This document shows positions 35,062-61,393 of a stretch of DNA of 64,000 nt, piece after piece. The DNA lies in the NCBI GenBank assembly GCA_050255815.1, contig JBLMVJ010000014.1:36728-100727 (forward strand), in the 5' to 3' direction. How positions within the stretch are numbered: position 1 is the stretch's first letter; the number at the start of each line of letters is the position of its first letter. Source of the stretch: Candidatus Levyibacteriota bacterium (GTDB taxonomy: Bacteria; Patescibacteriota; Microgenomatia; Levybacterales; GWA1-39-11). The notes beneath the pieces are model-generated. The model was given only the letters and a program-made list of their open reading frames with translations. It made no database searches and was not told the DNA's origin. The position numbers and the translations under genes are program-made.

Positions 35062-35067
35062 GAAATT

Positions 35068-36624: not shown

Positions 36625-36681
36625 ATTATATCAGAAGGTTTATTGAAGGTAAGAATTTGCTCATGCACCGGAATGATTCCT

Positions 36682-36697
36682 TGTGATAAAAATCACT
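36682..36697. promoter_or_regulatory. CRP-type palindrome TGTGATAAAAATCACT (TGTGA-N6-TCACt), centred about 40 bp upstream of the 36731 start codon.
   Basis: Read directly from the sequence. One mismatch from the E. coli CRP consensus half-sites. Confidence 0.4.
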
Positions 36698-36730
36698 GAT
36701 ATAAAAGTAATTTTTCAATATAAATGACTT

Positions 36731-37399: not shown

Positions 37400-37653
37400 A
37401 TCTCCCATTTTTAACTCCGCATGGTTGTAGATTAAATCTACCGGATTTTGAATAATACTTGGGGAACCTTTTATTGAGCAGGAAGAAATTCAACAATCCA
37501 CAGTTCTTGTTTTAAAGCGCCACTTATAGCATCATGAACTAACTCTCTGCGATTATATGTAGAAATAACGATGCTTATTAAGGATGACATGGAATTATAT
37601 CAGAAGGTTCGTATAGTCCATGAAGAGGTGTTAAAAAATGAGGCTAATTTTAT

Positions 37654-37728
37654 TGGCTCCCCCGCGAGGATTCGAACCTCGAACCTTAAAGTTAACAGCT
37701 TTCTGCTCTACCATTGAGCTACAGGGGA
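37654..37728 (-). tRNA. tRNA-Asn (anticodon GTT).
   Basis: Manual fold of the reverse complement gives TCCCCTG/TA/GCTC-AATGGTA-GAGC/A/GAAAG-CTGTTAA-CTTTA/AGGTT/CGAGG-TTCGAAT-CCTCG/CGGGGGA/G/CCA. The T-loop GGTTCGAATCC is canonical, the anticodon loop is CT-GTT-AA, and CCA is encoded. Confidence 0.85.
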
Positions 37729-37784
37729 ATGCTCATTCCATCTCAACTCTGCAGTTAAGATTCTTACGATTATACTCAATTACG

Positions 37785-37808
37785 CACAAAATTCCAATAT
37801 CCTAATTT
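37785..37808. repeat. 24-nt direct repeat, copy 1 (cacaaaattccaatatcctaattt), upstream of the 37857 gene.
   Basis: Exact 24/24 match to copy 2 at 38613..38636. Confidence 0.6.
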
Positions 37809-37856
37809 GGGGCGTAATGAGAACAAAGCATTATAGCCTTTGATATAATCCAAGAA

Positions 37857-38318
37857 ATGACCACAGAAGACGTATTAAAAATTGTGGATTACATTGCTAC
37901 AGAATGTAATAGGTTAAAGAATAAGTACATAGAGAATTCTTTAGAGGCTGATTATGTGTGTATATTTTCTCATAGTGAAGATGAATATAATCAGTTACTA
38001 GAGGTAGCTAAAACGTTAGGTAAAATTGCTACAGATACTCCCACAGGTCCAGTATTTGCTTTTACCACCCGCCCAGAAACGGTTATGGGTAGTCCAAAAC
38101 TGTTAAAAATCAGAAAGCCGGATGAAACCAGGGCACAGAGAGGAGACTTGGATCTAAATACAAATTATCCCGAGTTTAAGAAGAAGTATTTAAACAATAA
38201 TGAGTTCACTCTTATAGTGAGGCCCGACTTTGAAATGATTGAGTTAAAAGATGACTCTTTTGATGCGCTGCTTTATTTTTCAAGTATCCCACTCAGTAAG
38301 CAATTAGGGATAACATAG
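37857..38318 (+). CDS. Hypothetical protein (153 aa).
   Basis: ORF preceded by the 24-nt motif and a TATAAT-like box (ttgatataatcc). No family recognised. Confidence 0.5.
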   Translation: MTTEDVLKIVDYIATECNRLKNKYIENSLEADYVCIFSHSEDEYNQLLEVAKTLGKIATDTPTGPVFAFTTRPETVMGSPKLLKIRKPDETRAQRGDLDLNTNYPEFKKKYLNNNEFTLIVRPDFEMIELKDDSFDALLYFSSIPLSKQLGIT

Positions 38319-38322
38319 ACAG

Positions 38323-38382
38323 GATTTAGGGGTTTGGGATGAGGGATACCAGGTGGTCTAGGAGTTCTTGGTAGTCACACAT
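38323..38382 (-). pseudogene. Remnant of a GH130-gene 3' end, encoding [19 protein letters not shown].
   Basis: Lies in frame directly after the TAG stop of the 68-aa ORF. About 55 nt are homologous to the 3' end of the GH130 gene at 39321..40343 ([17 protein letters not shown]), including the 34-nt repeat 38351..38384. Confidence 0.4.
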
Positions 38383-38384
38383 AG
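38351..38384. repeat. 34-nt repeat, copy 1 (aggtggtctaggagttcttggtagtcacacatag).
   Basis: 33/34 match to 39343..39376, which lies within the 3' coding end of the GH130 gene. Confidence 0.6.
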
Positions 38385-38385
38385 G

Positions 38386-38592
38386 CTATTCTTTGTGCTC
38401 AACTTTTAAGATTACATTCTTTTTCACCCCTGCAACCGCGGGAAGCAAATGGTTTAAGACCTGTTCAGCAGTCATCCTAAACTCTCTTCCCCTAGCTGAA
38501 ATCTTTACCCACCCTTCTTTATCCCTAAAATAACGTTCAGTGAAGTTTTTAGTTCCTATAAAAATGGTATAGCAGTCATTTGTCAGCTTCAT
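38386..38592 (-). CDS. Small hypothetical protein (68 aa). Possibly the 5' part of a disrupted gene.
   Basis: ORF only. It is followed in the same frame by a stop and then the GH130 C-terminal remnant. Confidence 0.3.
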   Translation of the reverse strand: MKLTNDCYTIFIGTKNFTERYFRDKEGWVKISARGREFRMTAEQVLNHLLPAVAGVKKNVILKVEHKE

Positions 38593-38612
38593 GCTTTGAT
38601 TTTAGCACAGGA

Positions 38613-38636
38613 CACAAAATTCCAATATCCTAATTT
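38613..38636. repeat. 24-nt direct repeat, copy 2, upstream of the 38698 gene.
   Basis: Exact match to 37785..37808. Followed by a TATAAT-like box (tttattataatc). Confidence 0.6.
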
Positions 38637-38697
38637 CATAAATCTAAAACATCTTAGGTCTCAGATTCCCTTCAGGACTTTATTATAATCTCTTGGA

Positions 38698-39285
38698 ATG
38701 AGAAGAATTATTACCACTACCATGATTACGCTGGATGGTGTTATGCAAGCTCCTGGTGTTTCTAAAGAAGATGAGAGTGAAGGTTTCAAATACGGAGGAT
38801 GGCAGGTGGGGTGGGATAAAGAAGCAGACGCAATAACAGACAGAATTCAAGCAGAACCTTTGGACCTACTCTTTGGAAGACGTACTTATGATATTTTTGC
38901 CGGATATTGGCCGCACCATGAAGATGAACCACATTGGGGAAAACCGTATAGTAAGGCGAAAAAGTATGTAGTTTCTCATAAGCCGGTTAAGCTACCATGG
39001 AAAAACTCCCAACTTATCTCAGGAGATGTTGTGGGTGAAATTAAAAAACTAAAGGATTCAAATGGTCCAAACCTTTGGGTGTGGGGCAGTAGCTCTCTTA
39101 TTCAAACACTGCTTAAAAATAACCTCATTGATAGAATGTATCTCTGGATATTTCCCCTTACTATTGGTACTGGTAAAAAACTATTCGCAGAAGGCACAAT
39201 TCCGGAGCGCTTTAAAATGGTGGATGGGAAAATTACCTCAAACGGTATTATATTTGCAGCCTATGAACCATCAACTCCTCTTTAG
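38698..39285 (+). CDS. Dihydrofolate-reductase-like protein (RibD C-terminal domain family).
   Basis: MRRIITTTMITLDGVMQAPG...FGRRTYDIFAGYWP...LWVWGSSSLIQTLLKNNLIDRMYLWIFPLTIGTGKKLF is typical of the bacterial RibD_C/DHFR-like family. A paralog lies at 51999..52559. Confidence 0.7.
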   Translation: MRRIITTTMITLDGVMQAPGVSKEDESEGFKYGGWQVGWDKEADAITDRIQAEPLDLLFGRRTYDIFAGYWPHHEDEPHWGKPYSKAKKYVVSHKPVKLPWKNSQLISGDVVGEIKKLKDSNGPNLWVWGSSSLIQTLLKNNLIDRMYLWIFPLTIGTGKKLFAEGTIPERFKMVDGKITSNGIIFAAYEPSTPL

Positions 39286-39320
39286 CAGCTGAAGCATTAA
39301 ATAAGGTTGAAGCCTTGATT

Positions 39321-40343
39321 TCATTCCTGAATTAAGGATACAAGGTGGTCTAGGAGTTCCTGGTAGTCACACATAGCTAGGCAGATTCCCTGGTCACCGC
39401 TTCCGTAGTATACATAGAGATTTTCCCCGTATACCACTGCGCCTTCCGGAAACGCCACATGGTTTACTATGCCATGCAGTTCCCGCTCTGTCTCCGGTTT
39501 TAACACATGGTCCACATTTGCCAGGATCTTCCGGGGATTATGTAAATCCAGGAGAGCCGCGCTAATGGACCACTCCGGGTGGTTTCCCACTTTACTGATA
39601 GCGCTATAGATAAAAAGCCACCCGTGCGGAGTTTTAATAGGCACCGCACCTACTTCATTTCCCCGGTCCTCAGTTGGCTTCATCACTACATATTCTTCAT
39701 ATTCTTCATTTACTATCCTATTCATCCGTTCTTTTGAAGGGTAGAAGAGGTCATACAGGTCATCAAACTGCGCCATCATGATGGTTGCCTTAGGGCTTTC
39801 CAGTTCAAAGGTAAAGAGCATAGTGTACTTCCCGTTAATTTTTTCCGGGAACAGGCAGGCAGCTTTAGAGAAAAGGTCCGGTCCTATAATTCCGTGTTTA
39901 TTCCAGTGGATAAAATCCTTGCTGGTTGCCAGTGCAATCCTTACCTTTTGCTCATGGCCTGCGCCGCCTACAGCCGTGTAGTAGAGATAGTAGACGCCAT
40001 CTATCTTTGTCACCCGCGGGTCTTCGCACCCCAGGCCGTTTTCATAACTTTCCGTAGGGGAAATAAGCGGCTCTTCAAACCGGTCAAAATGCATACCGTC
40101 CACGCTTTCTGCGTATCCCAGGGAAGACATATACGCGCCTTCTATATCAGGATGCACGTCATTTGTAGCCCTATAAATCATGCGGAAAAAGCCGTTTTCA
40201 TAAATGACCCCGGGGTTTAAGACCGACCCTTTTTCCCAATCATGGGACGGATCACGCTCTATGATGGGATCCCCCCTAAACCGTCTTAATTTCATAATAA
40301 TTATTGTAACAGTAATTTTGTTTAGTACACAAGAGCAACTCAA
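39321..40343 (-). CDS. GH130-family (formerly DUF377) glycoside hydrolase or phosphorylase, single domain.
   Basis: [21 protein letters not shown] motif and beta-propeller-like repeats. The same motif family occurs in the two double-domain proteins at 57606..61393. Confidence 0.65.
39343..39376. repeat. 34-nt repeat, copy 2, inside the GH130 3' coding end.
   Basis: 33/34 match to 38351..38384. Confidence 0.6.
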
Positions 40344-44008: not shown

Positions 44009-46369
44009 ATGAGTCTTATGTACTCCGGGTTATCCTCATCCCAAGCTACTAACATCCTCAAGGAGAAAGGGTTTAACGAAATACCTGAAAAACAAGAACC
44101 GTTATACCGGAAAATAATAAAGAGCTTTATATCTCCTATTGCTCTCATGCTGTTGCTTGCTTCCGGACTGTCTTTTTCTTTGCATAAAACATTTGACGGC
44201 TATTTCATCCTCATATTACTGCTTTTAAATATAGTCATTACCTTATGGCAGGAGAAAAAAGCAGACAACGCCATTAAAAAATTAAATGAACATTTGCAAC
44301 AAAAGATAAAAGTGTTCAGGGATGGGCAGTGGCAATCTATTGGTTCCCGTTTTTTAGTAGAAGGGGATGTAGTCCAGCTTGCTTCCGGGGAAGTAATCCC
44401 TGCGGACGGAAAAATTATTGAAGACCATCACGTGCAAGTCAATGAATCCGCCCTTACCGGAGAATCCCTGCCAAAAGACAAGAAAGAAGGGGATGAAGTA
44501 TTTTCCGGTTCTTTTATAGCCTCTGGGATAGCAATAGTTACCGTAGTTGCCACAGGGGTAAGGACCAGCTTTGGGAAAACAATTTTCTCTGTTGAGAAGA
44601 TCAGGAAGCAGAGTGAATTGGAAAAAGATATTATTAATATTTCTAAATTCCTGACGGTCCTCAGCCTGATTGCGGTTGCTATCCTGAGCATTATATTTCT
44701 GATGAGAAAGGCTTCCCTCCTAGAACTGCTTACGCTGGACCTGAGCCTCATCATAGCAGGAATACCTATAAGCCTGCCAACTGTTATGACGCTTATCATA
44801 GAATTTGGGGTACTTGCCTTATCAAAAAAGAATGTTATAGTCCGCAGGCTTTCCGCATTGGAAGACCTGGCAAATGTAAATTTTTTACTGACTGATAAAA
44901 CGGGGACACTCACAAAAAATAAAATAACTGTACGTGATATTTATGCATATGACGGTTTTACCCATAATGATGTGTTGTCCTATGCTGCTGTCATTGCTGC
45001 CTCTGAAAGTGATAACCCAATAGACGCAGCAATAACTGAAAAAGTACAAGAACTGCGCTTAAGGCTTCCTTCCTGGACTAAAAAAGATTTCATCCCTGCA
45101 GATTCCAAAAGGAAGCGAAGCACCCTCACCATACAAGAAGATGGGTCTGAAAAAGCCCTTGCCTTAGGCGCCCCCCAGATTATAGAAGATCTGTGCCGAT
45201 TGGATAAAAATACGCAGAAGAAATTTAAACGGGAGGTAGAAACATTGGCCGCAAGCGGTTACCGGACACTGGCGGTGGCAGTTTCAAAAACAGGTAAAGA
45301 AGAGAATATGAAAATGGTAGGTGTTATGGCTCTTTCAGATACCCTCAGAGAAGATGCAAAATCAGTCGTACAATTCCTTACGGAGAACAACATCCAGGTG
45401 GCCATGGTAACGGGTGACAACAAATCTATTGCCGCCAACATTGCTGCCCAGCTGGGCCTGGCTGAGAGGGAAACTATCACAAAAAAACAATTGGACTCCA
45501 TGGACTGGAAGGGTATTCAGGCAAATTTTTATACCCGTGCCAGCGCCTTTGCTGAAATCCTTCCTGAAGACAAAATGCATCTGGTCCAGAAAGCAAAAGA
45601 ATTTTTTGTTGTTGCTTCAAATGGGGACGGGGTGAATGACTTGCCGGCGGTTAAAGCAGCAGATGTTGGTATTGCGGTTAAAAACGCTGTTGCCGCCCTG
45701 AAGGCAACTGCAGACATTGTTCTTCTTTCAGAAGGGATAAGCGTTATCAGGGATGCTATTATTGAGAGCAGAAAAATCTTTGAACGCATTTATACGTATT
45801 CCCTCTACAGGATTTCAGAAAGCCTGAGGTTGATTATTACTATTGCTGTTTTAGGCTTATTGTACGGGGTGTACCCATTGACAGCATTGCAAATTATTCT
45901 CATAGCGCTTTTGAATGATATCCCTATCATTTCCCTAGCTTCTGACCGGGTAAAGACAACAAACAGGCCGGCAAAGATAGATGCAAAAAACCGTTTTACG
46001 TTAAGTTCATTATATGGGTTAACCGGTGTAGCAAATAGTTTATTGCTGTTTTTCCTAGTTAGTAATATATGGCATATTGATTGGTCACTTCTTCAGACTA
46101 TGTTTTTTCTCAAGCTAACTGTTTCAGGGCATTTACTGATCTATGTTGCACATACCAAAAAACGGTGGTGGCAGTTTCTCCCCAGTAAGGGGGTTATATG
46201 GGCAACAACTCTCACTCAGTTAGTTGCAACGGGGTTTGCACTTACCGGATTCCTGATGTCCGCCAGACTTCCGTTGTGGCAGGTAGGATTTGTATGGGCA
46301 TGGTCGTTAGGCTGGATGCAGGTTAGTGAAGGGATGAAGATGTTGCAGCAAAGATGGTATAGATCTTGA
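44009..46369 (+). CDS. Cation-transporting P-type ATPase (P2/P3-like, 786 aa).
   Basis: DKTGTLT, TGDN, GDGVNDLPAVKAADVGIAV and ten TM helices. No heavy-metal CPx motif. Confidence 0.82.
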   Translation: MSLMYSGLSSSQATNILKEKGFNEIPEKQEPLYRKIIKSFISPIALMLLLASGLSFSLHKTFDGYFILILLLLNIVITLWQEKKADNAIKKLNEHLQQKIKVFRDGQWQSIGSRFLVEGDVVQLASGEVIPADGKIIEDHHVQVNESALTGESLPKDKKEGDEVFSGSFIASGIAIVTVVATGVRTSFGKTIFSVEKIRKQSELEKDIINISKFLTVLSLIAVAILSIIFLMRKASLLELLTLDLSLIIAGIPISLPTVMTLIIEFGVLALSKKNVIVRRLSALEDLANVNFLLTDKTGTLTKNKITVRDIYAYDGFTHNDVLSYAAVIAASESDNPIDAAITEKVQELRLRLPSWTKKDFIPADSKRKRSTLTIQEDGSEKALALGAPQIIEDLCRLDKNTQKKFKREVETLAASGYRTLAVAVSKTGKEENMKMVGVMALSDTLREDAKSVVQFLTENNIQVAMVTGDNKSIAANIAAQLGLAERETITKKQLDSMDWKGIQANFYTRASAFAEILPEDKMHLVQKAKEFFVVASNGDGVNDLPAVKAADVGIAVKNAVAALKATADIVLLSEGISVIRDAIIESRKIFERIYTYSLYRISESLRLIITIAVLGLLYGVYPLTALQIILIALLNDIPIISLASDRVKTTNRPAKIDAKNRFTLSSLYGLTGVANSLLLFFLVSNIWHIDWSLLQTMFFLKLTVSGHLLIYVAHTKKRWWQFLPSKGVIWATTLTQLVATGFALTGFLMSARLPLWQVGFVWAWSLGWMQVSEGMKMLQQRWYRS

Positions 46370-50267: not shown

Positions 50268-50588
50268 ATGGATACATTCCAGGCGTTAGCAGAACCCAGA
50301 AGAAGAGAGATTGTAGAACTTTTGGCAAAAAAGGGAAGGCTTTCCGCAACAGATATTTCTGAGAATTTTAGCATTTCAGCTCCGGCAATTTCCCAGCACT
50401 TAAAAATTTTGCGTGAGGCAAAGCTGGTAGACATGGAAAAGCATGCACAGAAACGCATTTATGCTTTGAATCCGGATACTATCTCAGATATTGAGGAGTG
50501 GATTGGAAAACTCAGAAGCCTGTGGAGTAAACGTTTTGAAAGGCTGGATTCATTGTTACAAAAAAGGGGAAAACATGGAAGACCATAA
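50268..50588 (+). CDS. ArsR/SmtB-family transcriptional regulator.
   Basis: FQALAEPRRREIVELLAKKGRLSATDISENFSISAPAISQHLKILREAKLV is a canonical ArsR winged HTH. Confidence 0.82.
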   Translation: MDTFQALAEPRRREIVELLAKKGRLSATDISENFSISAPAISQHLKILREAKLVDMEKHAQKRIYALNPDTISDIEEWIGKLRSLWSKRFERLDSLLQKRGKHGRP

Positions 50589-51480
50589 AGCTCCCCTTGA
50601 AAAGGGTGAATTAGTACATATGCAAAAAATAGTCCCATTTCTTTGGTTTGTTGATAATGCGCAGGAGGTAGTTGCCTTTTATACCTCTATCTTTGCGGAT
50701 TCCAGAATAGTCCACGCTGACAAATTGGTTTCTACGTTTGAACTTGCCGGACTGGAGTTCATGGCGTTAAACGGGGGAGACTACCAGCACCCTAATCCCT
50801 CCATTTCTTCCTTTGTTTCCTGTGAGACGGAAGAGCAGATAAATACATTGTGGGAAAAGCTTTTGCCGGACGGTAAGGTCCTTATCCCTTTTGATACGTA
50901 CCCTTTCAGTAAAAAATATGGCTGGCTCAGTGACAAATATGGAGTTTCCTGGCAGCTCAACCTCACCGGGGACAAGCAAAAAATTGCACCTGCGTTTATG
51001 TTTACGGGGGACAAGGCCGGGAAAGCTGAGGAGGCAATCCGTTTCTACACGTCTTTATTTGAGAATTCCCGGATTAATGCCCTGGTCCATTATGAGCCGG
51101 GAGAAGGGGATAAAGAAGAGTTTTTGAAATTTGCATCATTTGTTCTTTCCGGCCAGGATTTTGTTGCCATGGACAGCAGCCTTCCCCATGATTTTACGTT
51201 TAGTGAAGGAGTTTCCCTGTTTGTGCGATGCCAGGACCAGAAAGAAGTAGACCGGTTTTGGGAGGAGCTTTCTGCGCAGCCTGATGCTGAGCAGTGCGGT
51301 TGGCTGAAAGATAAGTTTGGCGTTTCCTGGCAGATTATCCCCAATGTTTTGATGGAACTTATGGCGGATCCGGATAGGGAAAAAGCAGACCGGGTTATGC
51401 AGGCCATGCTGAAAATGAAAAAGATAGAAGTAAAAGGCTTACAGGAAGCCTACAGGGGAGGTGCTGACAACAATGGATGA
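50575..51480 (+). CDS. VOC/PhnB-like protein with two domains (3-demethylubiquinone-9 3-methyltransferase-like domain family).
   Basis: Each half starts with a PhnB-like motif (VPFLWFVDNAQEVVAFYTSIF and APAFMFTGDKAGKAEEAIRFYTSLF). Start reassigned to the ATG at 50575 (the ORF-track start 50491 lies inside ArsR). Confidence 0.6.
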   Translation: MEDHKAPLEKGELVHMQKIVPFLWFVDNAQEVVAFYTSIFADSRIVHADKLVSTFELAGLEFMALNGGDYQHPNPSISSFVSCETEEQINTLWEKLLPDGKVLIPFDTYPFSKKYGWLSDKYGVSWQLNLTGDKQKIAPAFMFTGDKAGKAEEAIRFYTSLFENSRINALVHYEPGEGDKEEFLKFASFVLSGQDFVAMDSSLPHDFTFSEGVSLFVRCQDQKEVDRFWEELSAQPDAEQCGWLKDKFGVSWQIIPNVLMELMADPDREKADRVMQAMLKMKKIEVKGLQEAYRGGADNNG

Positions 51481-52559: not shown

Positions 52560-52909
52560 TCCAAATAAAACGGGTATATGAAGACCCTGATAAACAAGAC
52601 GGGTTCAGGATCTTAGTAGATAGGATCTGGCCCAGGGGAGTTTCAAAAGAAGAAGCCCGGGTTGATTTGTGGTTAAAAGACATAGGACCTACAACTGAGC
52701 TGCGGAAATGGTTTGGCCATGAGGTCCCAAAATGGGAAGGGTTCCGGAAAAAATACCAGGCAGAGTTGAGGGAAAAACAGAATCTGCTTGATGAAATCAA
52801 GAAACAGGAAAAAGAACATACAACCGTAACGTTATTGTTTGGGGCAAAAGATGAGGATCACAACCAGGCAGTGGTTATCAGGGATGTGTTAGGGGAGAAT
52901 AACCGCTAA
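52556..52909 (+). CDS. DUF488-family protein (YeaO/MTH938-like).
   Basis: IKRVYEDPDKQDGFRILVDRIWPRGVSKEEARVDLWLKDIGPTTELRKWFGH is a conserved DUF488 signature. Confidence 0.65.
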   Translation: MIQIKRVYEDPDKQDGFRILVDRIWPRGVSKEEARVDLWLKDIGPTTELRKWFGHEVPKWEGFRKKYQAELREKQNLLDEIKKQEKEHTTVTLLFGAKDEDHNQAVVIRDVLGENNR

Positions 52910-53782
52910 TGAAATCAGCAAGTTAAATACCAGAAGGTTCAAAAGGGAGAGCCCAAAAACTTTTCTTGCCCACCTGATATCATCATGAGTTTTGAATCCC
53001 TGCAGCGCCCTAAGAAGCCATAAAATTCCCACGGTAAGCATACCAGCAGCATAAGCGTACTTAGTGAATTGGAATAACGTTAGAGAAAGGCAAGCCAATA
53101 TAAAAAGTATGATGTAGGTTATGATATGCAGCTTTGTTTCTGCAATGCCGCGTTTTATAGGAAGAGCAGGAATGTGTGCCTTTTTATAATCTTCCATCCT
53201 AAAAATGGAAATGGCATAAAAATGCGGCATTTGCCACAAAAATAAAATGAAAAACAGGAGAAGTGCTCCCAGATCAAAATGGTTTGTAGCGGCAAGGTAT
53301 CCGCTCACCAGCGGCACAGCACCTGAAACTGCACCCATGTGTACCCCCAGAATAGAGTGCCGCTTGGTATAGGTGTAGATGCCAATATAAAACACAAACC
53401 CCAGCGCCGCCGCAGCAAGAACAAGCCAGTTGGTAAAAAGAGCAAGCGTAGACACCCCTATAACCGCCAGGATGAAGGCGTACAGGAGCGCATTTTTTGC
53501 AGGTATGAGTTTAACAATAGCCGTCCTTTGTTGGGTCCGCTCCATTTTGCTGTCTATATCCCGGTCAATGTAGTTATTTAAAACACACCCGCTGGCAATA
53601 GAAAAAGCCATCCCTACCAGGACGCCAAATAATGCCCCCGGTTGGATAGACCCCTGAGTGCCAAGCATAAAACCGCCAAAAGCGGCTATGAGGTTTCCTC
53701 CTATAATACCGGGTTTTGTGATATAGAAATATGCCTTCCAAATGTTTCCGCCGGTATAACTGCTGAGGGAAAAAGATTTCAT
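52889..53782 (-). CDS. cyoE: Protoheme IX farnesyltransferase (heme O synthase).
   Basis: UbiA-family motifs (NNYIDRDIDSKMERTQQRTA and a second Asp-rich motif), nine TM helices, and a position at the end of the cyo operon. Confidence 0.8.
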   Translation of the reverse strand: MKSFSLSSYTGGNIWKAYFYITKPGIIGGNLIAAFGGFMLGTQGSIQPGALFGVLVGMAFSIASGCVLNNYIDRDIDSKMERTQQRTAIVKLIPAKNALLYAFILAVIGVSTLALFTNWLVLAAAALGFVFYIGIYTYTKRHSILGVHMGAVSGAVPLVSGYLAATNHFDLGALLLFFILFLWQMPHFYAISIFRMEDYKKAHIPALPIKRGIAETKLHIITYIILFILACLSLTLFQFTKYAYAAGMLTVGILWLLRALQGFKTHDDIRWARKVFGLSLLNLLVFNLLISLAVILP

Positions 53783-53788
53783 GAAGAC

Positions 53789-54151
53789 TTATTTATGGAT
53801 TCCTTCCTCATTTTGGATGTAGGTATTTATATCAGGGGTCATGTTGTAATTTAAATGGTCCATAATCCAGATAGACCCTATGACAATCATTAGGACAATA
53901 AAAACAGTTGATAGGAATAGCTGGAGGTTTAATCTGGGCTTTGATTCCTGCCCCAAATGGAGGAAGTACAACAGTTGTATGAGCAGCTGGACAACCGCAA
54001 AAACCGGCAGCAAAATACCCAGAAGGGCATCAGGCGGAAACACATGCAGGGTTTTCAGGTGATACATCACTAATACATAGCTTCCCAGAGTTAAGACAAG
54101 GGATAGGATAAACCCTATGAGATAATTGGAAACTGTTTTTTTGATCCTCAT
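53789..54151 (-). CDS. cyoD: Cytochrome bo3 quinol oxidase subunit IV.
   Basis: 120-aa three-TM protein in the conserved position between subunit III and cyoE. Confidence 0.6.
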   Translation of the reverse strand: MRIKKTVSNYLIGFILSLVLTLGSYVLVMYHLKTLHVFPPDALLGILLPVFAVVQLLIQLLYFLHLGQESKPRLNLQLFLSTVFIVLMIVIGSIWIMDHLNYNMTPDINTYIQNEEGIHK

Positions 54152-54720
54152 GAAATTGCCCCCATTAAATATACAATAGTAAAAATAAATATCCAGACAA
54201 TATCAAGAAAGTGCCAGAAAAGACTGAGCTGTTTTACTTTCCCCAGATTAGAGTCTGTAACTCCCCGTTTGTACAGGTAAAAAATAAGGATTCCAAGCCA
54301 GATGCTGCCGGCAAAGATATGCATTCCATGCGCCCCAATAAGGGTAAAAAAAGAAGAGAGGAAGGCGCTTTTTTGCGGTGTATGCCCCTCCTGTATTAAG
54401 TGGGAAAATTCAGACAGTTCCATGGATAGAAAGACAAGTCCCAACAAGAGGGTAGAGGCAAGCAGGAGAATGGTTTTCTTCTTGTCTTTTTGTCCGGCAT
54501 AGACGGTTGCTATGCCGCAGGTAAAACTGCTGACCAAAAGGACAATGGTTTCAGAGAGTACAAAAAGCGGATTGAAGATGCGGTGGATTGAGATTCCTCC
54601 AAAGGTATTATTATGCAGCACCGCGTACGCCGCAAAAAGCACGGCAAACATAATAAGGTCTGTCATAAGGTATATCCAAAACCCAAATAACGCTTTTTCA
54701 GAGGAATGGTGTTCAGCCAT
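54148..54720 (-). CDS. cyoC: Cytochrome bo3 quinol oxidase subunit III.
   Basis: Five-TM COX3-family protein. Start moved to the ATG at 54720 (MAEHHSS), which still overlaps the cyoB stop by 8 nt. Confidence 0.75.
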   Translation of the reverse strand: MAEHHSSEKALFGFWIYLMTDLIMFAVLFAAYAVLHNNTFGGISIHRIFNPLFVLSETIVLLVSSFTCGIATVYAGQKDKKKTILLLASTLLLGLVFLSMELSEFSHLIQEGHTPQKSAFLSSFFTLIGAHGMHIFAGSIWLGILIFYLYKRGVTDSNLGKVKQLSLFWHFLDIVWIFIFTIVYLMGAIS

Positions 54721-56689
54721 GGTGGACCCTTTCTCTTTCAAGTTTTGCTACATCTGCCGCTTTCAATACATATTCCGTGTCATCATTAAATGTCCTTTTT
54801 ATCACGCAGAAGATTGCGCCTATAGCCCCGAGCACAATAAGCCAGACCAAATGCCAGACAAAGGCAAACCCAACAAGGAAAATGCATCCTGCCAGATACA
54901 TGCCCATGGCTGTATTTTTAGGCAACGTTATATCCTCATACACCACCCGCTGTTTCTTTTTACCCGATTCTTTCATCTCCCAAAATGCATCCCGGGATTT
55001 CACTTCCGGGATAACAGCAAAATTGTAAAACGGGGCAGGGGAGTGTGTTGCCCATTCCAGAGTCCTGCCGTTCCAGGGATCACCCGTAAGGTCCTTCAGT
55101 TTTTTCCGCTGCCTGATGCTGACAACAACCTGGATTATCTGTGAAGCAACTGCTATCCCTAAAATGCATGCCCCTATAAAAGAGGTGATAAACAGCGGCT
55201 GCCAATGGGTTGCAGCGTCATAATGGTCAAGCCTTCTGGTTGCGCCCATCATGCCCAGAATATACAAGGGAACAAAGGAAACAAAAAATCCAACAAGCCA
55301 AAGCCAAAAGGAAATCTTTCCAATACGTTCATTCAGCCTAAACCCGGTCACTTTTGGGAACCAATACGTTATGCCGGCAAAGATGCCAAACACTGCGCCC
55401 CCTATAGCCATAGTATGGAAATGCGCTACTAAAAATAAACTGTTATGCAGCTGGAAGTCAGCCGGAGGAAGTGCCAGGAGCATGCCTGCCATGCCTCCAA
55501 AGGTAAAGGTAGACATAAATCCAAAAAACCACATCAGGGGGGTATGGAATCTGATCCTGCCTTTATACATGGTTCCCAGCCAGCTTAAGAATTGGACGCT
55601 GGTAGGGATGGCAATAAACATGGTCATAATGCCAAAGAACGCATTAATATCCGCGCCGGACCCCATAGTGAAAAAGTGGTGGAGCCAAACCCAAATAGAG
55701 AGGACAGTGATACCTATTGCGCCGGCAACCAAAGAGACATAGCCTGCCAACCTTTTTTGGGAGAATGTTGCAACAACCTCAGAATAGACGCCAAAAGCGG
55801 GAAGGATAAGGATATACACCTCCGGGTGTCCCCACATCCAGATAAGGTTTACATACATCATGGCGCTCCCCCCCAATGTAGCGGTAAAAAAGTGCATGCC
55901 AAACAAGCGGTCTAATGAGAGAAGGGCAGTGGTTGCAGCCAGGATAGGAAAAACAGTGATGATCAAAACTGAGCTGCAAAGGGATGTCCATACAAATAAC
56001 GGCATTCTCATAAGGCTCATGCCCGGTGCACGCATTTTCAAAATGGTAACCAGGAAATTGATTCCCCCCAGTGTTGTCCCAAGCCCTGAAACCTGCAGGC
56101 TCCAGATCCAATAATCCACGCCAACCCCCGGACTAAACTGGGATTCTGACAGGGGCGCCACCGCAAGCCAACCGGTAGCAGAAAACTCTCCCCCTAAGAC
56201 AAAAAACAGGTTCACTAAAATTGCACCGGCAACATAGAGCCAGAAACCCAGGGTATTCAAAAACGGGGAAGCAAGGTCCCTGGTGCCTATCTGCAGGGGA
56301 ACAATAATATTTAAAAGCCCGAACAAAAAACCCATGGTAACAAAAAAGACCATGATAACACCGTGGGCGGTGAATACCTGCTGGAAGTGGTCGGCAGACA
56401 GGTATCCGTGGGATGCTCCTACTGATATGGATTGTTGTGCCCATATCATGAACGCGTCCAAAACGCCACGGATAAACATGAGAAAGGCAACAATTATGTA
56501 CATGATCCCGATTTTTTTTGGGTCCACGGCAGTTAACCATTCACGCCAGAGCCATTGCCACCTTTTCAGTTTTGTAATCAGAAGGACGGTTGCTATCATC
56601 ATGGCGGTGACAAAAACCGTACCGCCTATGGTGAACCACTCATGGGGTAATGCACTGAGAGTAAGACGGCCAAAAATAAATTCAAGCAT
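54713..56689 (-). CDS. cyoB: Cytochrome bo3 quinol oxidase subunit I (heme-copper oxidase catalytic subunit).
   Basis: 658 aa with canonical HCO subunit I features (HPEVYILILPAFG; the histidine-ligand pairs HH..TMG and VAHFHTM). Confidence 0.9.
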   Translation of the reverse strand: MLEFIFGRLTLSALPHEWFTIGGTVFVTAMMIATVLLITKLKRWQWLWREWLTAVDPKKIGIMYIIVAFLMFIRGVLDAFMIWAQQSISVGASHGYLSADHFQQVFTAHGVIMVFFVTMGFLFGLLNIIVPLQIGTRDLASPFLNTLGFWLYVAGAILVNLFFVLGGEFSATGWLAVAPLSESQFSPGVGVDYWIWSLQVSGLGTTLGGINFLVTILKMRAPGMSLMRMPLFVWTSLCSSVLIITVFPILAATTALLSLDRLFGMHFFTATLGGSAMMYVNLIWMWGHPEVYILILPAFGVYSEVVATFSQKRLAGYVSLVAGAIGITVLSIWVWLHHFFTMGSGADINAFFGIMTMFIAIPTSVQFLSWLGTMYKGRIRFHTPLMWFFGFMSTFTFGGMAGMLLALPPADFQLHNSLFLVAHFHTMAIGGAVFGIFAGITYWFPKVTGFRLNERIGKISFWLWLVGFFVSFVPLYILGMMGATRRLDHYDAATHWQPLFITSFIGACILGIAVASQIIQVVVSIRQRKKLKDLTGDPWNGRTLEWATHSPAPFYNFAVIPEVKSRDAFWEMKESGKKKQRVVYEDITLPKNTAMGMYLAGCIFLVGFAFVWHLVWLIVLGAIGAIFCVIKRTFNDDTEYVLKAADVAKLERERVHHG

Positions 56690-56692
56690 AGT

Positions 56693-57559
56693 TTAATGGA
56701 CCTTTTGTACAGAAGGAAGCATATACTTCATTAGCACTTCATTATACAAATTTGGATCAACGTTTGAATAGAAGGCAGGCGGATTATTTTCACTTGGCTT
56801 TAAAAGCTCCTGGTAGCTTGTTCCATTAAGGACTTGCGGATATGACCGGACAGAGCCTACCCAGGTATTAAACTCCTGGGGTGTTACTGCTTTCACCCTG
56901 AATTTCATGCCTGAAAACCCTGCCCCATTTATTTCTGCAGCAGATCCTCTATATTCACCCGGAGTATTTGCTTCCAGATGAATCTGCGTTTTCATACCGG
57001 TCATTGCATACATTTGTCCTCCTAATTGCGGAATCCAAAAAGAATTCATGGGGCCGTCAGAAGTAAGCTCAAAAGTAATAGGGGTGTCCAGCGGGATCTC
57101 AATAAAATTAACGGTTGCTATCTTCTGGTCCGGATAAATAAATAACCATTTCCACCTGAGTGCTACCACCTGAATAGTAACCGGAGGGGTACTTCCTGCA
57201 AGTTTCTTATAGGGGTCCAACTCGTGGGTAAATTTCCAATTCAGAAATGCCATAAAAAGAATGACGGTAATGGGGATTATCCATTTGAGCACCGCTGCGT
57301 TGCGGGTAAGTTTCCAGTCAGGGGCGTATGTTCCGCGTGATCCTTCTTTATATTTTACCGCTATAAAAAAGGCAAGCAAAAATACCGGGATAGCACAAGA
57401 AAGCATGATGAGGACCATAGTTATCAGTAAGTTTTTTTCAGAACGCGCAATAATTCCCTCAGGGGTAAGAAGCGCAACGGTTCCATTTCCAATCAGGAGG
57501 GTTATGACTAGCGCAGCATCCAGAAGACACAGTATGAAAATGGTCAATTTTATTTTCAT
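56693..57559 (-). CDS. cyoA: Cytochrome bo3 quinol oxidase subunit II.
   Basis: NSFWIPQLGGQMYAMTGMKTQIHLEANTPGEYRGSAAEINGAGFSGMKFRVKAV is near-colinear with the E. coli CyoA C-terminal domain. The CuA ligands (Cys pair) are absent (SAAEINGAGFSGM), which indicates a quinol oxidase rather than a cytochrome c oxidase. Confidence 0.85.
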   Translation of the reverse strand: MKIKLTIFILCLLDAALVITLLIGNGTVALLTPEGIIARSEKNLLITMVLIMLSCAIPVFLLAFFIAVKYKEGSRGTYAPDWKLTRNAAVLKWIIPITVILFMAFLNWKFTHELDPYKKLAGSTPPVTIQVVALRWKWLFIYPDQKIATVNFIEIPLDTPITFELTSDGPMNSFWIPQLGGQMYAMTGMKTQIHLEANTPGEYRGSAAEINGAGFSGMKFRVKAVTPQEFNTWVGSVRSYPQVLNGTSYQELLKPSENNPPAFYSNVDPNLYNEVLMKYMLPSVQKVH

Positions 57560-57605: not shown

Positions 57606-59540
57606 CTATTTGCCCAGGAGTATTTCCAGAAGAGTATTAAGGGGCATGGTAGCTACGCCAACCACTGAATCACCACCGCCATAGTACAGATAAATGATGC
57701 CGTTGATTACTACCGCACCGCATGCAAACACCACGTTAGGTACCTGTCCGGTCAGTTCATACGGCATTTCAGGATCAAATACGGGGTCCTCAGTCCTGGC
57801 TAAAATCTTCCGGGGGTCATTGTAGTCTAAGAGCATTGCACCGGTTTTATAATAGAAACCCGGTTCCTGCACGCCGTGATACAGGAGGACCCAGCCGTGC
57901 TCAGTTTCTATAGGAGGAGCCGCAATGCCTATCTTTACGTTGTCCCACCGGTCTTTCCTGGCCTGTGCAATAATACCGCCGGTTAAAAACTTTTTATCAG
58001 GGAATTCCAGGTCCCGTAAAAAGTCCAGCCAGATGACTTCCCCCAGCCTATGGAAGGCAATATATCCGTCTCCTGACTTTTTCTTAATGATGCATGCATC
58101 TTTATCATCAACGCCGGGAGGGGAAATAAGCTTGGGTTTTTCCCAGATCCAATTTTTAGCCAGAAAATCTTTGACTAAGATGGAAGTCATGGCAACCCGG
58201 GGAGGATTTTTTCCGTCATATGCAGTGTAGGTCATGTAAAACCTATCGTCTATTTTTGTAATTCGGGGGTCTTCACATCCGGAATTTCCTTTGGGTGCCG
58301 TTTTTTTCTCAAAGCTTTCCCGGGGTATATAAATTGGGTAATTGAGGATCTCATCTATATGGAGGCCGTCTCTGCTGTTGGCATAGCCAAAAACAGACGT
58401 GCCGTCATGGGATTGCGCGCGGTATATGATATGGACTTTCCCGTCTTCATAAATTGCAGCAGGGTTATAGGTGGCGTAGCCCTGCCACTCTAATTCCAGG
58501 ACAGGAGAAATGATAGGGTTTCCCTCAAATCTGGTAAATTTGCGGAATTCCGGATTCATGGAGAGGGTTTCCGGAGATGCTTTAGGCAGCATGTCACCCA
58601 AGAGTTCATTCAAGTCACAGAAAGCTACAGCGCAGCTGGTATCCGCAGCACCGTAATAGACCATCAGCTTTCCGTTTTGTACCAGAGCTCCTGACGGAAA
58701 GATCACATTTGGTACAATGCCCTTTAGTTCATATTCTTCCGAAGGGGTAATAAGCGGTTGGGAGGTCCTGCCTATAATCTTGTGGGGATCGTTCAAGTCT
58801 AACAGTATAGCCTCTATACCAAAGGTCTTTTTATTGGAAAGGTAGTTGCCTATATAGGAGTAAATAATAAGCCACCCTTTATCAGTTTTAATAGGAGGGG
58901 AGCCCAGTTCTACCTGGTCCCGGACGTCCCGCATAAGGTGGAGGATGTGGTTGTTGGCATTGTCATACCACTCTGTCCAGTAAAATGGTGACCACATGTC
59001 TTCAATCCGGTCAAACAGTGCCAGGGCAATTTTTGCAGGAGGCAGGTCAGTGTTGATAGTAAGAAGTGCCGCATATTTTCCGTTCACTTTTTCAGGAAAC
59101 ATCCCCATAGCTTTAGAGTTAAAGGTGGTTACCTGATGCTTTTCAAACGTCTGGAAATCAGAGGTTATGGCAACGGCAAGTTTTATGCCGTATGCACTGA
59201 AAGGGTAGGTGGAGAGGGCAGTATAGAAGATGTAAAACTTCCCGTCCATATAGGTAATCCGCGGGTCCTCACATCCGTATGTTTCCCAGACCTCCGTAGG
59301 GACAATAAGCTGTTTATGTTCCCCAAAATGTACGCCGTCAGAGCTGGTGGCATACCCTATGGTGGAAACCTGCATAGTGACGCCGTTTTGTTGGGTAGGG
59401 GAAGAAAATGCCCTATAGACCATGTGGTAGACTCCGTCTACCTCTACTACGCAGCCGTTAAAAGCACCATCATGTTCCCATGCGTGGTTCTGGTTAGGGG
59501 TTAGGATCGGATTGTCTTGCGATCTTGTTAAGGTGACCAT
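57606..59540 (-). CDS. Tandem double GH130-family domain protein (644 aa).
   Basis: Two copies of the GH130 core motif (GCEDPRITYMDGKFYIFYTA and GCEDPRITKIDDRFYMTYTAYDGKNPPRVAMTSI). Confidence 0.7.
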   Translation of the reverse strand: MVTLTRSQDNPILTPNQNHAWEHDGAFNGCVVEVDGVYHMVYRAFSSPTQQNGVTMQVSTIGYATSSDGVHFGEHKQLIVPTEVWETYGCEDPRITYMDGKFYIFYTALSTYPFSAYGIKLAVAITSDFQTFEKHQVTTFNSKAMGMFPEKVNGKYAALLTINTDLPPAKIALALFDRIEDMWSPFYWTEWYDNANNHILHLMRDVRDQVELGSPPIKTDKGWLIIYSYIGNYLSNKKTFGIEAILLDLNDPHKIIGRTSQPLITPSEEYELKGIVPNVIFPSGALVQNGKLMVYYGAADTSCAVAFCDLNELLGDMLPKASPETLSMNPEFRKFTRFEGNPIISPVLELEWQGYATYNPAAIYEDGKVHIIYRAQSHDGTSVFGYANSRDGLHIDEILNYPIYIPRESFEKKTAPKGNSGCEDPRITKIDDRFYMTYTAYDGKNPPRVAMTSILVKDFLAKNWIWEKPKLISPPGVDDKDACIIKKKSGDGYIAFHRLGEVIWLDFLRDLEFPDKKFLTGGIIAQARKDRWDNVKIGIAAPPIETEHGWVLLYHGVQEPGFYYKTGAMLLDYNDPRKILARTEDPVFDPEMPYELTGQVPNVVFACGAVVINGIIYLYYGGGDSVVGVATMPLNTLLEILLGK

Positions 59541-59581
59541 GATTATCCTACGGAAAGGCTCTGGATAAAGAATAACACGTT

Positions 59582-61393
59582 TTAGTTAAACAGCGTGTTA
59601 GGAATTTTCCTCAGTTTGGGTTCCTGGTTGTGCTTCATTTCCTTGAGGAAGGTGGATAAATCAGCACTTGCAGCACAAACCACCGTATCGGCACCGCCAT
59701 AGTAGACGTGAAGTTTATCATTCATTGCAACTGCGCCGCATGGATAGACAACGCCTGCCTTAAAACCGTCATTCTCATACTTTTCCACAGGTTCTACAAT
59801 AGGGGAGTTGGTCCGGTACAGGACCTTAGAAGGGTTTTCCAAATCCAGCAACATAGCCCCAATTTTATATTTGCCCGGGTCCTGGTAGCCTACTGACTGG
59901 TATACAAACAGCCATCCATCTTCAGTTTTAATAGGAGGTGCCCCGGCGCCAATCTTTTTGCTGTCCCAGAATTTCTTCCGGGGCGGAATAAAGTGATGTC
60001 CCTGTAGGTACGTATTTTCAAAGGAGAGGTCATCTACGTAATCAACCAGGATATTAGGGTAGATCCTGTGGAAGACAACATATTTGCCTTTAATTTTCTC
60101 CGGGAAGATAACTGCATTTTTATTCACCATGCCCGGTGCAGAGATGAGCTTTGGTTTTTCCCAGTTATCCCAGCGCTTGTTCAAAAAGTCGTCAACTGAA
60201 ATAGAGGTGAGCGCAACGCGCGGCGGATTTGCCCCGTCAAAGGCCACATAAGTCATATAGAATTTATCATCTACTTTTGTAATGCGCGGGTCTTCCACGC
60301 CCCCATAGCCTCCTCCGGACATGAAATGCTCTGCAATGCTTTTGAACGCGTTATTGCCGGGTGTCTCAAAAGGTTCACGCGGAATATATACAGGTTCAAT
60401 AGAGCGGTCATCTATATGGATCCCGTCAGAGCTGGTTGCATATCCCAACACGGAAAGGTCAGTGTCCCCCAAGGCACGGTACAGGAAGTGGACTTTTCCA
60501 TCTTCATAAACTGCTGCCGTGTTAAAAGTAGCCCGTGATTCCCACGGCCTGTGTTCTTGCGGAGAAATAATAGGATTGTTTTCAGCCTTTTTAAACATGG
60601 GCTGGAACACTTTATCTTTCAGTCCGGTTGTTATAGTAGGGATTTGGCAGGTAACCGTGTATAAACTTTCCTGTCCTATTACCCAGTAGAGGATGAGCTG
60701 GTCTTCTGAAACAACTGCGCCTAATGGTGCCACTTCTTCCCGGGAAAGTTCTTCCGGCTGTTCCCAGATAGGCTCGTCAGACCGCCAAACGTATTTCAAC
60801 GGATTTTCCCTGTCAAACAGCGCTGCGCCTACCGCATACCTATTATCCTTTTTCACATAGTAGGTGAGTAAAATGTGGTCACCAATTACCCATGCATTTC
60901 CGGTTTCCAGGTCTCCATTATCAAAAAAGTTCTGGCGTTTTTCCAGTACAGCCGTTTTTTCTGCTTTCCAGGTCAACAGGTCTGTTGATGTAGCAGCTTT
61001 TATAGCTTTTTCCCCATAATACATAACAAATGCATCATGAAACACATAGTCGGGTATTACTGCGGCGGTTTCTTTGATACCCCTCACTGTCCCGGTTTTT
61101 TCCCAAAGTGTTAAATTAGTGGATACTGCAGACTGCAGGGAGGTAGTGTTCTTTGTTTCTTTATAGGTTAAAAAGTATTGGTTCCCCAGCTTTGCCACCC
61201 TGAACCCTGACCAATTGTAGGATTTTTCGTCCCTTCCCTTATTGTCCATGAGAAAGACATGGTCATATTTGAGCGCATTCTGAAAGTCGGTAGAGGAGGT
61301 GACTGCTTTTAAGAAGAGGTATTTTCCTTCCGGTTGCAGATAGTATAAGAGAGAGTCGGCCCCTTTTTGGGTAGTTCCTATAAATTTAATCAT
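59582..61393 (-). CDS. Tandem GH130-family domain protein (603 aa). The N-terminal domain is divergent.
   Basis: C-terminal half has GVEDPRITKVDDKFYMTYVAFDGANPPRVALTSI. The N-terminal half is a more divergent beta-propeller-like repeat. Confidence 0.65.
   Translation of the reverse strand: MIKFIGTTQKGADSLLYYLQPEGKYLFLKAVTSSTDFQNALKYDHVFLMDNKGRDEKSYNWSGFRVAKLGNQYFLTYKETKNTTSLQSAVSTNLTLWEKTGTVRGIKETAAVIPDYVFHDAFVMYYGEKAIKAATSTDLLTWKAEKTAVLEKRQNFFDNGDLETGNAWVIGDHILLTYYVKKDNRYAVGAALFDRENPLKYVWRSDEPIWEQPEELSREEVAPLGAVVSEDQLILYWVIGQESLYTVTCQIPTITTGLKDKVFQPMFKKAENNPIISPQEHRPWESRATFNTAAVYEDGKVHFLYRALGDTDLSVLGYATSSDGIHIDDRSIEPVYIPREPFETPGNNAFKSIAEHFMSGGGYGGVEDPRITKVDDKFYMTYVAFDGANPPRVALTSISVDDFLNKRWDNWEKPKLISAPGMVNKNAVIFPEKIKGKYVVFHRIYPNILVDYVDDLSFENTYLQGHHFIPPRKKFWDSKKIGAGAPPIKTEDGWLFVYQSVGYQDPGKYKIGAMLLDLENPSKVLYRTNSPIVEPVEKYENDGFKAGVVYPCGAVAMNDKLHVYYGGADTVVCAASADLSTFLKEMKHNQEPKLRKIPNTLFN

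Follow-up and report, generated by a model that had tools for sequence, protein, structure and literature searches.

Evidence for an intact bo3-type quinol oxidase operon with an altered K-channel in a Candidatus Levyibacteriota genome

The 64-kb window analysed here, i.e., the whole stretch of DNA in whose coordinates all positions are given, derives from a metagenome-assembled genome (MAG) of Candidatus Levyibacteriota, a lineage of the Microgenomates group within the Patescibacteria or candidate phyla radiation (CPR). On its minus strand, between 52889 and 57559, lie the five genes cyoABCDE, which encode the four subunits of a cytochrome bo3-type quinol oxidase together with a haem O synthase (Table 1). 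A complete operon at this place had been proposed in an earlier reading of the sequence (hereafter the original prediction), and the open reading frame (ORF) listing, NCBIfam and Pfam all agree on it. According to the ORF coordinates, the spacing of the genes lies between a 3-nt gap and a 29-nt overlap, as is characteristic of a translationally coupled operon, and their order, cyoA-B-C-D followed by cyoE, is identical to that of the Pseudomonas and Acinetobacter operons compared. For cyoC an alternative in-frame ATG is found 21 nt downstream of the TTG start, and the 3' end of cyoE overlaps a convergent DUF488 gene by 21 nt. A promoter and terminator scan of 52-64 kb returned 22 sites against 23.0 expected from shuffled sequence, and thus no excess, and the 46-nt gap upstream of cyoA contains just a weak -10-like TATACT.

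Table 1. Genes of the cyo locus and its upstream neighbours, and active-site and channel residues of CyoB in E. coli bo3 and window numbering.
Feature	Position (nt)	Strand	E. coli bo3 residues	Window CyoB residues	Basis or remark
cyoA, quinol oxidase subunit II, 288 aa	56693-57559	-			ORF listing, NCBIfam, Pfam COX2+COX_ARM
cyoB, subunit I with TM0, 658 aa	54713-56689	-			ORF listing, NCBIfam, Pfam COX1
cyoC, subunit III, 197 aa from TTG start	54148-54741	-			NCBIfam, Pfam COX3
cyoD, subunit IV, 120 aa	53789-54151	-			NCBIfam, Pfam COX4_pro
cyoE, haem O synthase (protohaem IX farnesyltransferase), 297 aa	52889-53782	-			NCBIfam, Pfam UbiA
Two double-domain GH130 genes (603 and 644 aa; beta-1,2-mannobiose-phosphorylase-like)	57606-61393	-			directly upstream of cyoA, 46 nt away
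Quinol site			E14, R71, D75, H98, Q101	E17, R74, D78, H101, Q104	kept
Haem ligands			H106, H419, H421	H109, H423, H425	kept
CuB ligands			H284, H333, H334	H288, H337, H338	kept
Cross-linked Tyr			Y288	Y292	kept
D-channel			N124, D135, N142, E286	N127, D138, N145, E290	kept
Haem-propionate arginines			R481, R482	R485, R486	kept
K-channel, kept part			S299, T352, T359	S303, T356, T363	kept
K-channel, changed part	55592-55594 (codon CAA)		K362	Q366	changed

The best NCBIfam matches of the five ORFs are subunits II, I, III and IV of the cytochrome o ubiquinol oxidase and the haem O synthase (E 1e-26 to 3e-294), and CyoC, CyoD and CyoE reach bit scores above the curated equivalog cut-offs of these families. 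CyoB aligns end to end with the solved subunit I of E. coli bo3 (E 2e-249, 57% identity), and both this alignment and an AlphaFold2 model of the protein (predicted local distance difference test, pLDDT, 72.6; predicted template modelling score, pTM, 0.77) include the transmembrane helix TM0. The best PDB match of the model is again E. coli bo3 subunit I, with a template modelling (TM) score of 0.84 over 652-658 columns, followed by aa3-600 and aa3 oxidases. CyoA consists of two transmembrane helices, a cupredoxin domain and a COX_ARM tail, and its residues 20-281 can be aligned with the E. coli CyoA structure (E 4e-71, 41% identity). Since its only cysteines, at positions 11 and 55, both reside in the membrane part, the cupredoxin domain is devoid of the CuA cysteines and cannot bind CuA, as had been proposed. 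The accompanying description of this subunit as similar to that of E. coli holds in so far as the quoted motif is reproduced in the alignment, but it was overstated given the identities of both CyoA and CyoB and the two K-channel residues that differ. The lipobox cysteine (E. coli Cys25) was not found in CyoA, where LIGNGTV stands in place of the proteobacterial LLSGC or similar, nor does any of the 80 clade loci described below have it.

When the E. coli bo3 numbering is mapped onto the window CyoB by alignment, conservation extends to 20 of the 21 positions checked among the catalytic and channel residues, with K362 as the sole exception. The haem, CuB, Tyr, D-channel and quinol-site residues, the latter as defined elsewhere (PMC13022660), are furthermore all conserved in the 120 closest homologues. 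A D-channel with an entrance Asp and a terminal Glu is considered a signature of the A1 type (PMC3084760). From the features of A-family oxidases, the six His ligands, Tyr-I, the D-channel and the subunit I fold are present and the K-channel Lys is missing, and from those of bo3-type enzymes the CuA-less subunit II, the quinol-site residues together with TM0 and the cyoABCD-cyoE order are found, with the lipoprotein Cys of subunit II being absent.

The K-channel of A-type oxidases is composed of Lys354, Thr351, Ser291 and Tyr280 in P. denitrificans numbering (PMC3084760). The alignment around the lysine, K362 in E. coli, is unambiguous (IPTGVKIFNW in E. coli versus IPTSVQFLSW in the window), and two sets of homologues, namely the 120 proteins closest to the window CyoB (69-100% identity) and the 80 loci from species representatives that match it best (61-74%), demonstrate that its replacement is no peculiarity of a single sequence. 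In none of the 201 clade sequences, i.e., the window and its 200 homologues, is this position occupied by Lys; it is Gln in 113 and Leu in 7 of the closest proteins, and Gln, Leu or, once, Val in the species loci. Gln362 is found in Microgenomates, Levyibacteriota, Doudnabacteria, Paceibacteria, Chlamydiae and Verrucomicrobia and Leu362 in Saccharimonadia; all six proteobacterial CyoB proteins and 8/8 quinol-oxidase-like cluster representatives carry Lys. In subunit II, Ala89 (codon 57293-57295) stands for Glu89 of E. coli CyoA, the entrance glutamate of the K-channel. Gln362 pairs with Glu, Gln or Lys at CyoA position 89 in 33 of 35 loci and Leu362 with Val or other mostly apolar or variable residues, a covariation that looks like a stepwise loss of the pathway. 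Only 14 positions separate the clade from the Lys-type quinol oxidases. Among them are H54P, M79I, R80W, S159F and L160F (window residues 57, 82, 83, 162 and 163), of which R80 and H54 are retained even by distantly related cytochrome c oxidase representatives, and the surroundings of the haem or the quinone may differ as a result of these changes.

Judged from the wider protein family, lysine loss is not unique in the superfamily. Across 150 A-family subunit I cluster representatives, the K362 column holds Lys in 96, Gln in 21 and another residue in 33 cases, and most of the representatives without Lys are distant, often fused proteins of CoxI-III length. A preprint also describes that acidophilic iron oxidisers possess A-type cytochrome c oxidases in which both the K-channel Lys (by Ile or similar) and the subunit II Glu are replaced and the D-channel is kept (bioRxiv 10.1101/2020.03.01.968255). 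These enzymes differ from the present one, however, in that they are aa3-type oxidases with CuA from autotrophic acidophiles, belong to an unrelated branch and carry a hydrophobic substitution. For the CPR, Starr et al. (PMC6031116) marked the K-channel residues in the alignment of one Saccharibacterium, reported that 'some functional residues' are present and put the discrepancy down to evolutionary distance, and in the literature searched we found no treatment of the K-channel lysine loss in CPR enzymes.

The window CyoB is 100% identical to a MAG protein labelled as Candidatus Levyibacteriota, and its named relatives are Saccharimonadales, Doudnabacteria and Patescibacteria. Both homologue sets consist overwhelmingly of sequences from Saccharimonadia, Doudnabacteria, Paceibacteria/Parcubacteria, Microgenomates and Levyibacteriota, with Chlamydiae (Parachlamydiales, Rhabdochlamydia) and Verrucomicrobiae nested within the CyoB clade, and the operon is also present in four further species loci labelled as Levyibacteriota. 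The CyoB phylogeny that the original prediction had called for, run as a neighbour-joining tree, recovers the window and the 80 loci as monophyletic against six proteobacterial CyoB proteins and seven distant representatives in 50/50 bootstraps. Pairwise identity within the clade is at least 55%, and it is 50-62% between the clade and proteobacterial CyoB; the window protein itself is 56-58% identical to those of Paraburkholderia, Ralstonia, E. coli, Acinetobacter, Pseudomonas, Vibrio and Acetobacteraceae. Levyibacteriota-labelled CyoB proteins appear in at least three places in the tree, which suggests either exchange among CPR bacteria or weak resolution. A tblastn search against plasmids retrieved proteobacterial CyoB only (identity of at most 58%). 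Among representatives of clusters at 50% identity, a set too coarse for the nearest Lys-bearing relatives, the best was 50% identical to the window CyoB, and over the matched regions no Lys-type representative was closer to it than E. coli; this Lys-bearing comparison left out the Legionellales and Thiotrichales, which have been named as nearest (PMC9166423).

Similar operons have been reported from a sediment Saccharibacterium and Ca. Teamsevenus rhizospherense, for which haem and quinone scavenging and O2 detoxification were proposed (PMC6031116), from soil Saccharibacteria, Doudnabacteria and Parcubacteria, with lateral acquisition being inferred (PMC8407418), and from Saccharimonadia and Paceibacteria of fresh water, where Proteobacteria were named as the donors and Parachlamydiales as secondary recipients (PMC9166423), and they are covered in a recent review (PMC11665869). 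These operons likewise have the order cyoABCDE, their CyoB proteins fall into the same monophyletic clade (61-86% identity to the window CyoB), and K362 is likewise replaced. Their hosts are reduced, fermentative organisms that lack quinone and haem synthesis, and the window host is alike as far as its 64 kb show. The differences are that the host belongs to the Levyibacteriota, which, like the Microgenomates, are not named as cyo carriers in the publications consulted, and that the operon follows two GH130 genes. The operon belongs to the CPR-type cyo lineage, quite probably with an old lateral entry into the CPR that was followed by inheritance and exchange and gave offshoots in Chlamydiae and Verrucomicrobia. 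The horizontal acquisition that had been suspected is thereby upheld as an old event, in line with the CPR/Chlamydiae clade and the published transfer from Proteobacteria (PMC8407418, PMC9166423), but not as a recent one, as the composition of the operon is native (see below).

Two observations on the related loci deserve mention in their own right. Firstly, CPR-like CyoB proteins are found in loci with other titles (Gammaproteobacteria, Bacillota, Limnocylindrales, Methylomirabilota, Verrucomicrobiia; L001, L003, L004, L007, L013, L015, L023, L027 and L051), and the SMAG loci L006, L028, L044, L054 and L055 likewise combine non-CPR titles with a CyoB placed among CPR sequences. The flanks of several oddly titled loci match CPR-type genes of the window at 61-74% (the GH130 pair of L003 at 64-74%, ArsR of L007 at 67%, AHSA1 of L027 at 66%), and the titles probably go back to wrong taxonomic labels or to contigs that were mis-binned in public MAG sets. 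Secondly, a membrane protein of 90-105 aa with three helices, conserved His, Pro-Ser and Cys motifs and no Pfam match is encoded directly beside cyoE in 18 of the 80 related loci, for example at L076:7851-8141(-), L002:13784-14059(+) and L020:8473-8781(+), besides 15 others. It occurs in Microgenomates, Levyibacteriota, Paceibacteria and Saccharimonadia and might be the product of a sixth gene of the CPR-type cyo cluster or serve in assembly. Other clade members further encode, at a distance of up to 10 kb from cyo, NDH-2 (13 loci, one of them labelled as Levyibacteriota), a FAD-linked oxidase of the D-lactate/glycolate type (18 loci) or a polyprenyl synthase (6 loci). In many Saccharimonadia, NDH-2, the FAD-linked oxidase and the small cyoE-linked protein stand beside cyo, whereas none of them is encoded within this window.

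To describe the genomic context, 56 ORFs of the 64-kb window were surveyed by Pfam and some of them also by NCBIfam. Housekeeping functions are represented by ValRS, two class A penicillin-binding proteins, YidC, KhpB/Jag, DnaG, RpoD and ComM and carbon metabolism by GAPDH, PGK, class II FBA, PfkB, RpiB and RPE, and the window further encodes GH130 and GH125 enzymes, a DUF4012 protein, a heavy-metal P1B ATPase and a H+-efflux P-type ATPase. The glycolytic and pentose-phosphate enzymes, the GH130 and GH125 proteins and the H+-efflux ATPase support the view of a CPR-like, seemingly fermentative genome, in agreement with the original prediction. Three genes that might be taken for hints at respiratory functions were rejected. 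The PF06983 match named '3-demethylubiquinone-9 3-methyltransferase' (50572-51480) is a tandem VOC/PhnB-like protein with a Glyoxalase co-match and no NCBIfam family and gives no clue to quinone synthesis. The 'Mg_chelatase' match (28562-30085) is a ComM/YifB-type protein (ChlI, Mg_chelatase and Mg_chelatase_C with a Lon_C match) rather than a sign of tetrapyrrole synthesis, and the Crp/Fnr-family regulator (4222-4872) contains just C49 and C89 and no FNR-type N-terminal Cys cluster that would mark an O2 sensor.

Two of the transporters touch on the oxidase. The gene at 44009-46369 encodes a proton-efflux P-type ATPase of the plasma-membrane type (TIGR01647, 659 bits against a cut-off of 615.5) and would provide an ATP-driven route to a proton gradient in an organism that, by prediction, also carries an oxidase of the proton-pumping type. 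The P1B ATPase (10842-12638; TIGR01525, 462 bits, above cut-off) lacks an N-terminal metal-binding domain and might supply or export copper, which would be relevant to CuB assembly.

From our point of view, the locus is quite probably an intact and selectively maintained cyoABCDE operon that resides in the Levyibacteriota chromosome and encodes an A-family, bo3-type quinol oxidase together with its haem O synthase. The conserved redox and D-channel residues, the intact haem O synthase, the clade-wide identity and the stable synteny described below argue that the complex is made and used, most likely as a functional quinol oxidase with scavenged cofactors and an altered K pathway. Several points weigh against this view: (i) CyoA and CyoB score below the NCBIfam equivalog cut-offs (252.3 versus 266.2 and 977.5 versus 1020.35 bits, respectively), as would be expected for a divergent branch; (ii) the 56 ORFs surveyed include no NADH dehydrogenase or quinone reductase, no other cytochrome and no gene for quinone or haem synthesis, of which the lack of a further respiratory chain and of haem synthesis had also been noted from the sequence at first sight; (iii) the small cyoE-linked membrane protein was searched for in the window and not found; (iv) the lysine is absent from the A-type fingerprint (PMC3084760), the rest of which is present; and (v) a scan of the 14 clade-separating positions revealed no gained charged residue in subunit I that could replace it. 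Substitutions of K362 inactivate both E. coli bo3 and R. sphaeroides aa3, and the R. sphaeroides K362M variant loses oxidase activity and keeps peroxidase activity. As the lysine belongs to the A-type fingerprint and such mutants are inactive, full oxidase activity cannot be assumed.

A functional quinol oxidase could nevertheless be envisaged as follows. CyoE would farnesylate acquired haem b to haem O, and CyoABCD would accept electrons from membrane quinol at the E17/R74/D78/H101 site and pass them via the low-spin haem b to the haem o3-CuB centre, where O2 would be reduced to water. Proton uptake and pumping would proceed via the fully conserved D-channel. Since the canonical K pathway is altered (Gln366, CyoA Ala89), the protons of the reductive phase would need another path, which might be a water- and Gln-lined route or the D-channel, probably at lower turnover. 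As the window encodes no synthesis of either cofactor, haem b and quinone would presumably be scavenged, and quinone reductases such as NDH-2 would be encoded elsewhere in the genome. The role of the enzyme could be the consumption or tolerance of O2 in oxic habitats, with some contribution to the proton-motive force alongside the H+-ATPase. The window alone does not separate O2 detoxification or scavenging from respiration.

One could go further and speculate that the entire CPR/Chlamydiae/Verrucomicrobia bo3-type lineage constitutes a natural A1-type quinol oxidase without a K-channel, whose catalytic cycle would differ from the textbook, either with all protons taking the D-channel or with the enzyme chiefly scavenging O2 slowly or reducing peroxide with quinol in cells that borrow haem and quinone. 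The replacement of Lys362 by Gln or Leu and the progressive loss of Glu89 in subunit II would speak for this; at present, we would call this generalisation rather unlikely. The chemistry itself might be altered in that the complex is not a fast proton-pumping O2 reductase but scavenges O2 slowly or works mainly as a quinol peroxidase or as a reductase of another oxidant, and thereby protects a catalase-poor episymbiont. The clade-wide exchange of K362 amid otherwise intact catalytic residues, its apparently stepwise covariation with CyoA position 89, the missing compensation in subunit I and the peroxidase activity kept by the R. sphaeroides K362M variant would fit such an enzyme. However, the strict conservation of the D-channel, of E290 and of the quinol site is what one would expect from a pumping oxidase, the A-type oxidases of iron oxidisers, which naturally lack the lysine, are believed to serve respiration (bioRxiv 10.1101/2020.03.01.968255), and Gln is also found at the K362 column in 21 of the 150 distant A-family representatives mentioned above. 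We therefore consider this possibility improbable.

The chromosomal residence of the operon, as part of the quinol oxidase reading favoured here, is supported by its composition and by its position. The foreign GC content and codon usage that the original prediction had asked to look for are not observed. The five cyo genes have a GC content of 0.40-0.47 and a third-position GC content (GC3) of 0.42-0.53, compared with 0.427 ± 0.025 and 0.426 ± 0.052 in the other 51 genes of the window, and their individual synonymous-codon distances rank 13-34 of 52. Nor is there a chimeric break at about 49 kb, a possibility that had likewise been raised, as the tetranucleotide correlation is normal at 49-50 kb (0.944-0.949). 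More decisively, CyoB relatives from two independent assemblies, a 588-kb JGI contig and a Logan contig (79% and 81% identity), are embedded in the same co-directional arrangement ORF-GH130-GH130-cyoABCDE as in the window. The leading ORF of the relatives (516-547 aa) is 49-50% identical to the 558-aa ORF of the window and the GH130 proteins are 74-75% and 78-80% identical, and in this Levyibacteriota lineage cyoA is always preceded by the co-directional GH130 pair at a distance of 37-48 nt (window, Table 1; L086:5289-9086; L087:2995-6777). In the JGI contig, RpoD (96%), DnaG (77%) and ComM (86%) are encoded about 4 kb past cyoE, compared with 18.6 kb in the window. Given this shared synteny and a CyoB divergence (79-81%) that is similar to that of the flanking GH130 proteins (74-80%) and of DnaG (77%), the cyo cluster belongs to the genomic backbone of this lineage and is not a recent island.

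A recent island, or a chimera from assembly or binning instead of a stable part of a CPR genome, could be suspected from three other signals. The tetranucleotide correlation dips mildly to 0.87-0.90 for windows over 52-61 kb (mean 0.936, standard deviation 0.023), which can be explained by the composition of hydrophobic membrane proteins in a stretch that also holds the GH130 genes; the pooled codon distance of the cyo genes lies in the upper tail (0.091 versus 0.073 ± 0.010 in equal-sized control blocks, with 6% of the controls being as high); and the adjoining block contains accessory-type genes and a tRNA-Asn gene. Against this stand the ordinary per-gene GC, GC3 and codon distances, the CPR-type genes on both flanks, the recurrence of the arrangement in contigs from other samples with RpoD, DnaG and ComM nearby, and the fact that the nearest CyoB relatives are CPR and not proteobacterial proteins, so that this explanation is largely refuted and very improbable. 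Lastly, a decaying, non-functional relic, for which the loss of K362 and of subunit II E89 and the local absence of the cyoE-linked small protein could be put forward, is barely credible in the face of five intact, translationally coupled ORFs, the near-complete set of catalytic and channel residues and one substitution fixed across hundreds of sequences from several phyla at an identity of at least 55%, which points to long-term purifying selection.

With regard to its surroundings, the GH130 pair upstream of cyoA possibly forms a co-transcription unit with the operon, and we regard it as context and not as part of the oxidase. On the other side, the block between RpoD and cyoE (34.3-52.9 kb) spans 18.6 kb in the window versus about 4 kb in the close relative L086. 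It contains a tRNA-Asn gene (37654-37728), repeat-flanked cassettes, GH125 and GH130 genes, the H+-ATPase, PEBP and YbaK genes and an ArsR-VOC-AHSA1-RibD_C-DUF488 cluster, and the Pfam and NCBIfam scans confirm the ArsR, PEBP and YbaK neighbours initially described. This block looks like a variable, accessory region beside the conserved cyo cluster; the proposed accessory character of the region thus applies to the adjoining block and not to cyo itself, whose backbone position is shared with the two relatives. Homologues of ArsR, AHSA1, VOC and RibD_C also follow just past cyoE in some other clade loci (L007, L011, L015, L021 and L027), which amounts to a loose recurrent association.

Within the same block, three small genes near tRNA-Asn (36731-37399, 37857-38318 and 38698-39285) are each bracketed by short direct repeats, namely perfect repeats of 17 nt (36624/37593) and 24 nt (37785/38613) and a repeat of 46 nt with 91% identity (38339/39331), and this stretch (36624-39376) may represent cassette-like or repeated regulatory elements. 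The full-length RpoD gene is directly followed by the genes of two adjoining short proteins of 242 and 229 aa (34333-35757), which contain sigma-70 region 4 only, with at most a weak region 3.

Compared with E. coli bo3, the encoded enzyme shares the subunit set and order, the fold, TM0, the quinol site, the haem and CuB ligands, Y288, the D-channel and the CuA-less subunit II. It differs by its sequence identity of 57% for CyoB and 41% for CyoA, by the K362 to Gln and subunit II E89 to Ala exchanges, by the clade-specific changes from H54P to L160F listed above and by the missing lipoprotein Cys25, and the window shows neither ubiquinone nor haem synthesis for the host. The aa3-600 menaquinol oxidase QoxABCD of B. 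subtilis (PDB 6KOB) is likewise a quinol oxidase of the A family whose subunit II lacks CuA, and each of the four subunits has its second-best family match there. In the fold alignment it is, however, only 46% identical, the scores of the Qox NCBIfam models stay far behind those of the Cyo models, and aa3-600 uses haem A instead of haem O, with the Qox operon ending without a cyoE-type gene.

Overall, the presence of cyo in the CPR, its lateral origin, the scavenging of haem and quinone and the protection against O2 are already published (PMC6031116, PMC8407418, PMC9166423). The present study contributes the Levyibacteriota instance, and the finding that the K-channel lysine and its partner in subunit II have been lost across the clade goes beyond the literature searched. 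The locus hence adds the Levyibacteriota, and with them the Microgenomates group, to the CPR lineages with a complete terminal oxidase, here as a stable backbone feature. It would be unusual for two glycan phosphorylase genes to share a transcript with a terminal oxidase. The locus further touches on the question how ultrasmall, cofactor-auxotrophic CPR bacteria handle oxygen and whether any of them respire. A whole conserved bo3-type lineage without the lysine that mutagenesis marks as essential for the A-type K pathway represents a directly testable prediction. If these proteins are active oxidases, they would constitute a natural experiment on how A-type enzymes do without a K pathway; if they are not, the published view that soil CPR bacteria 'acquired aerobic capacity' would need to be revised.

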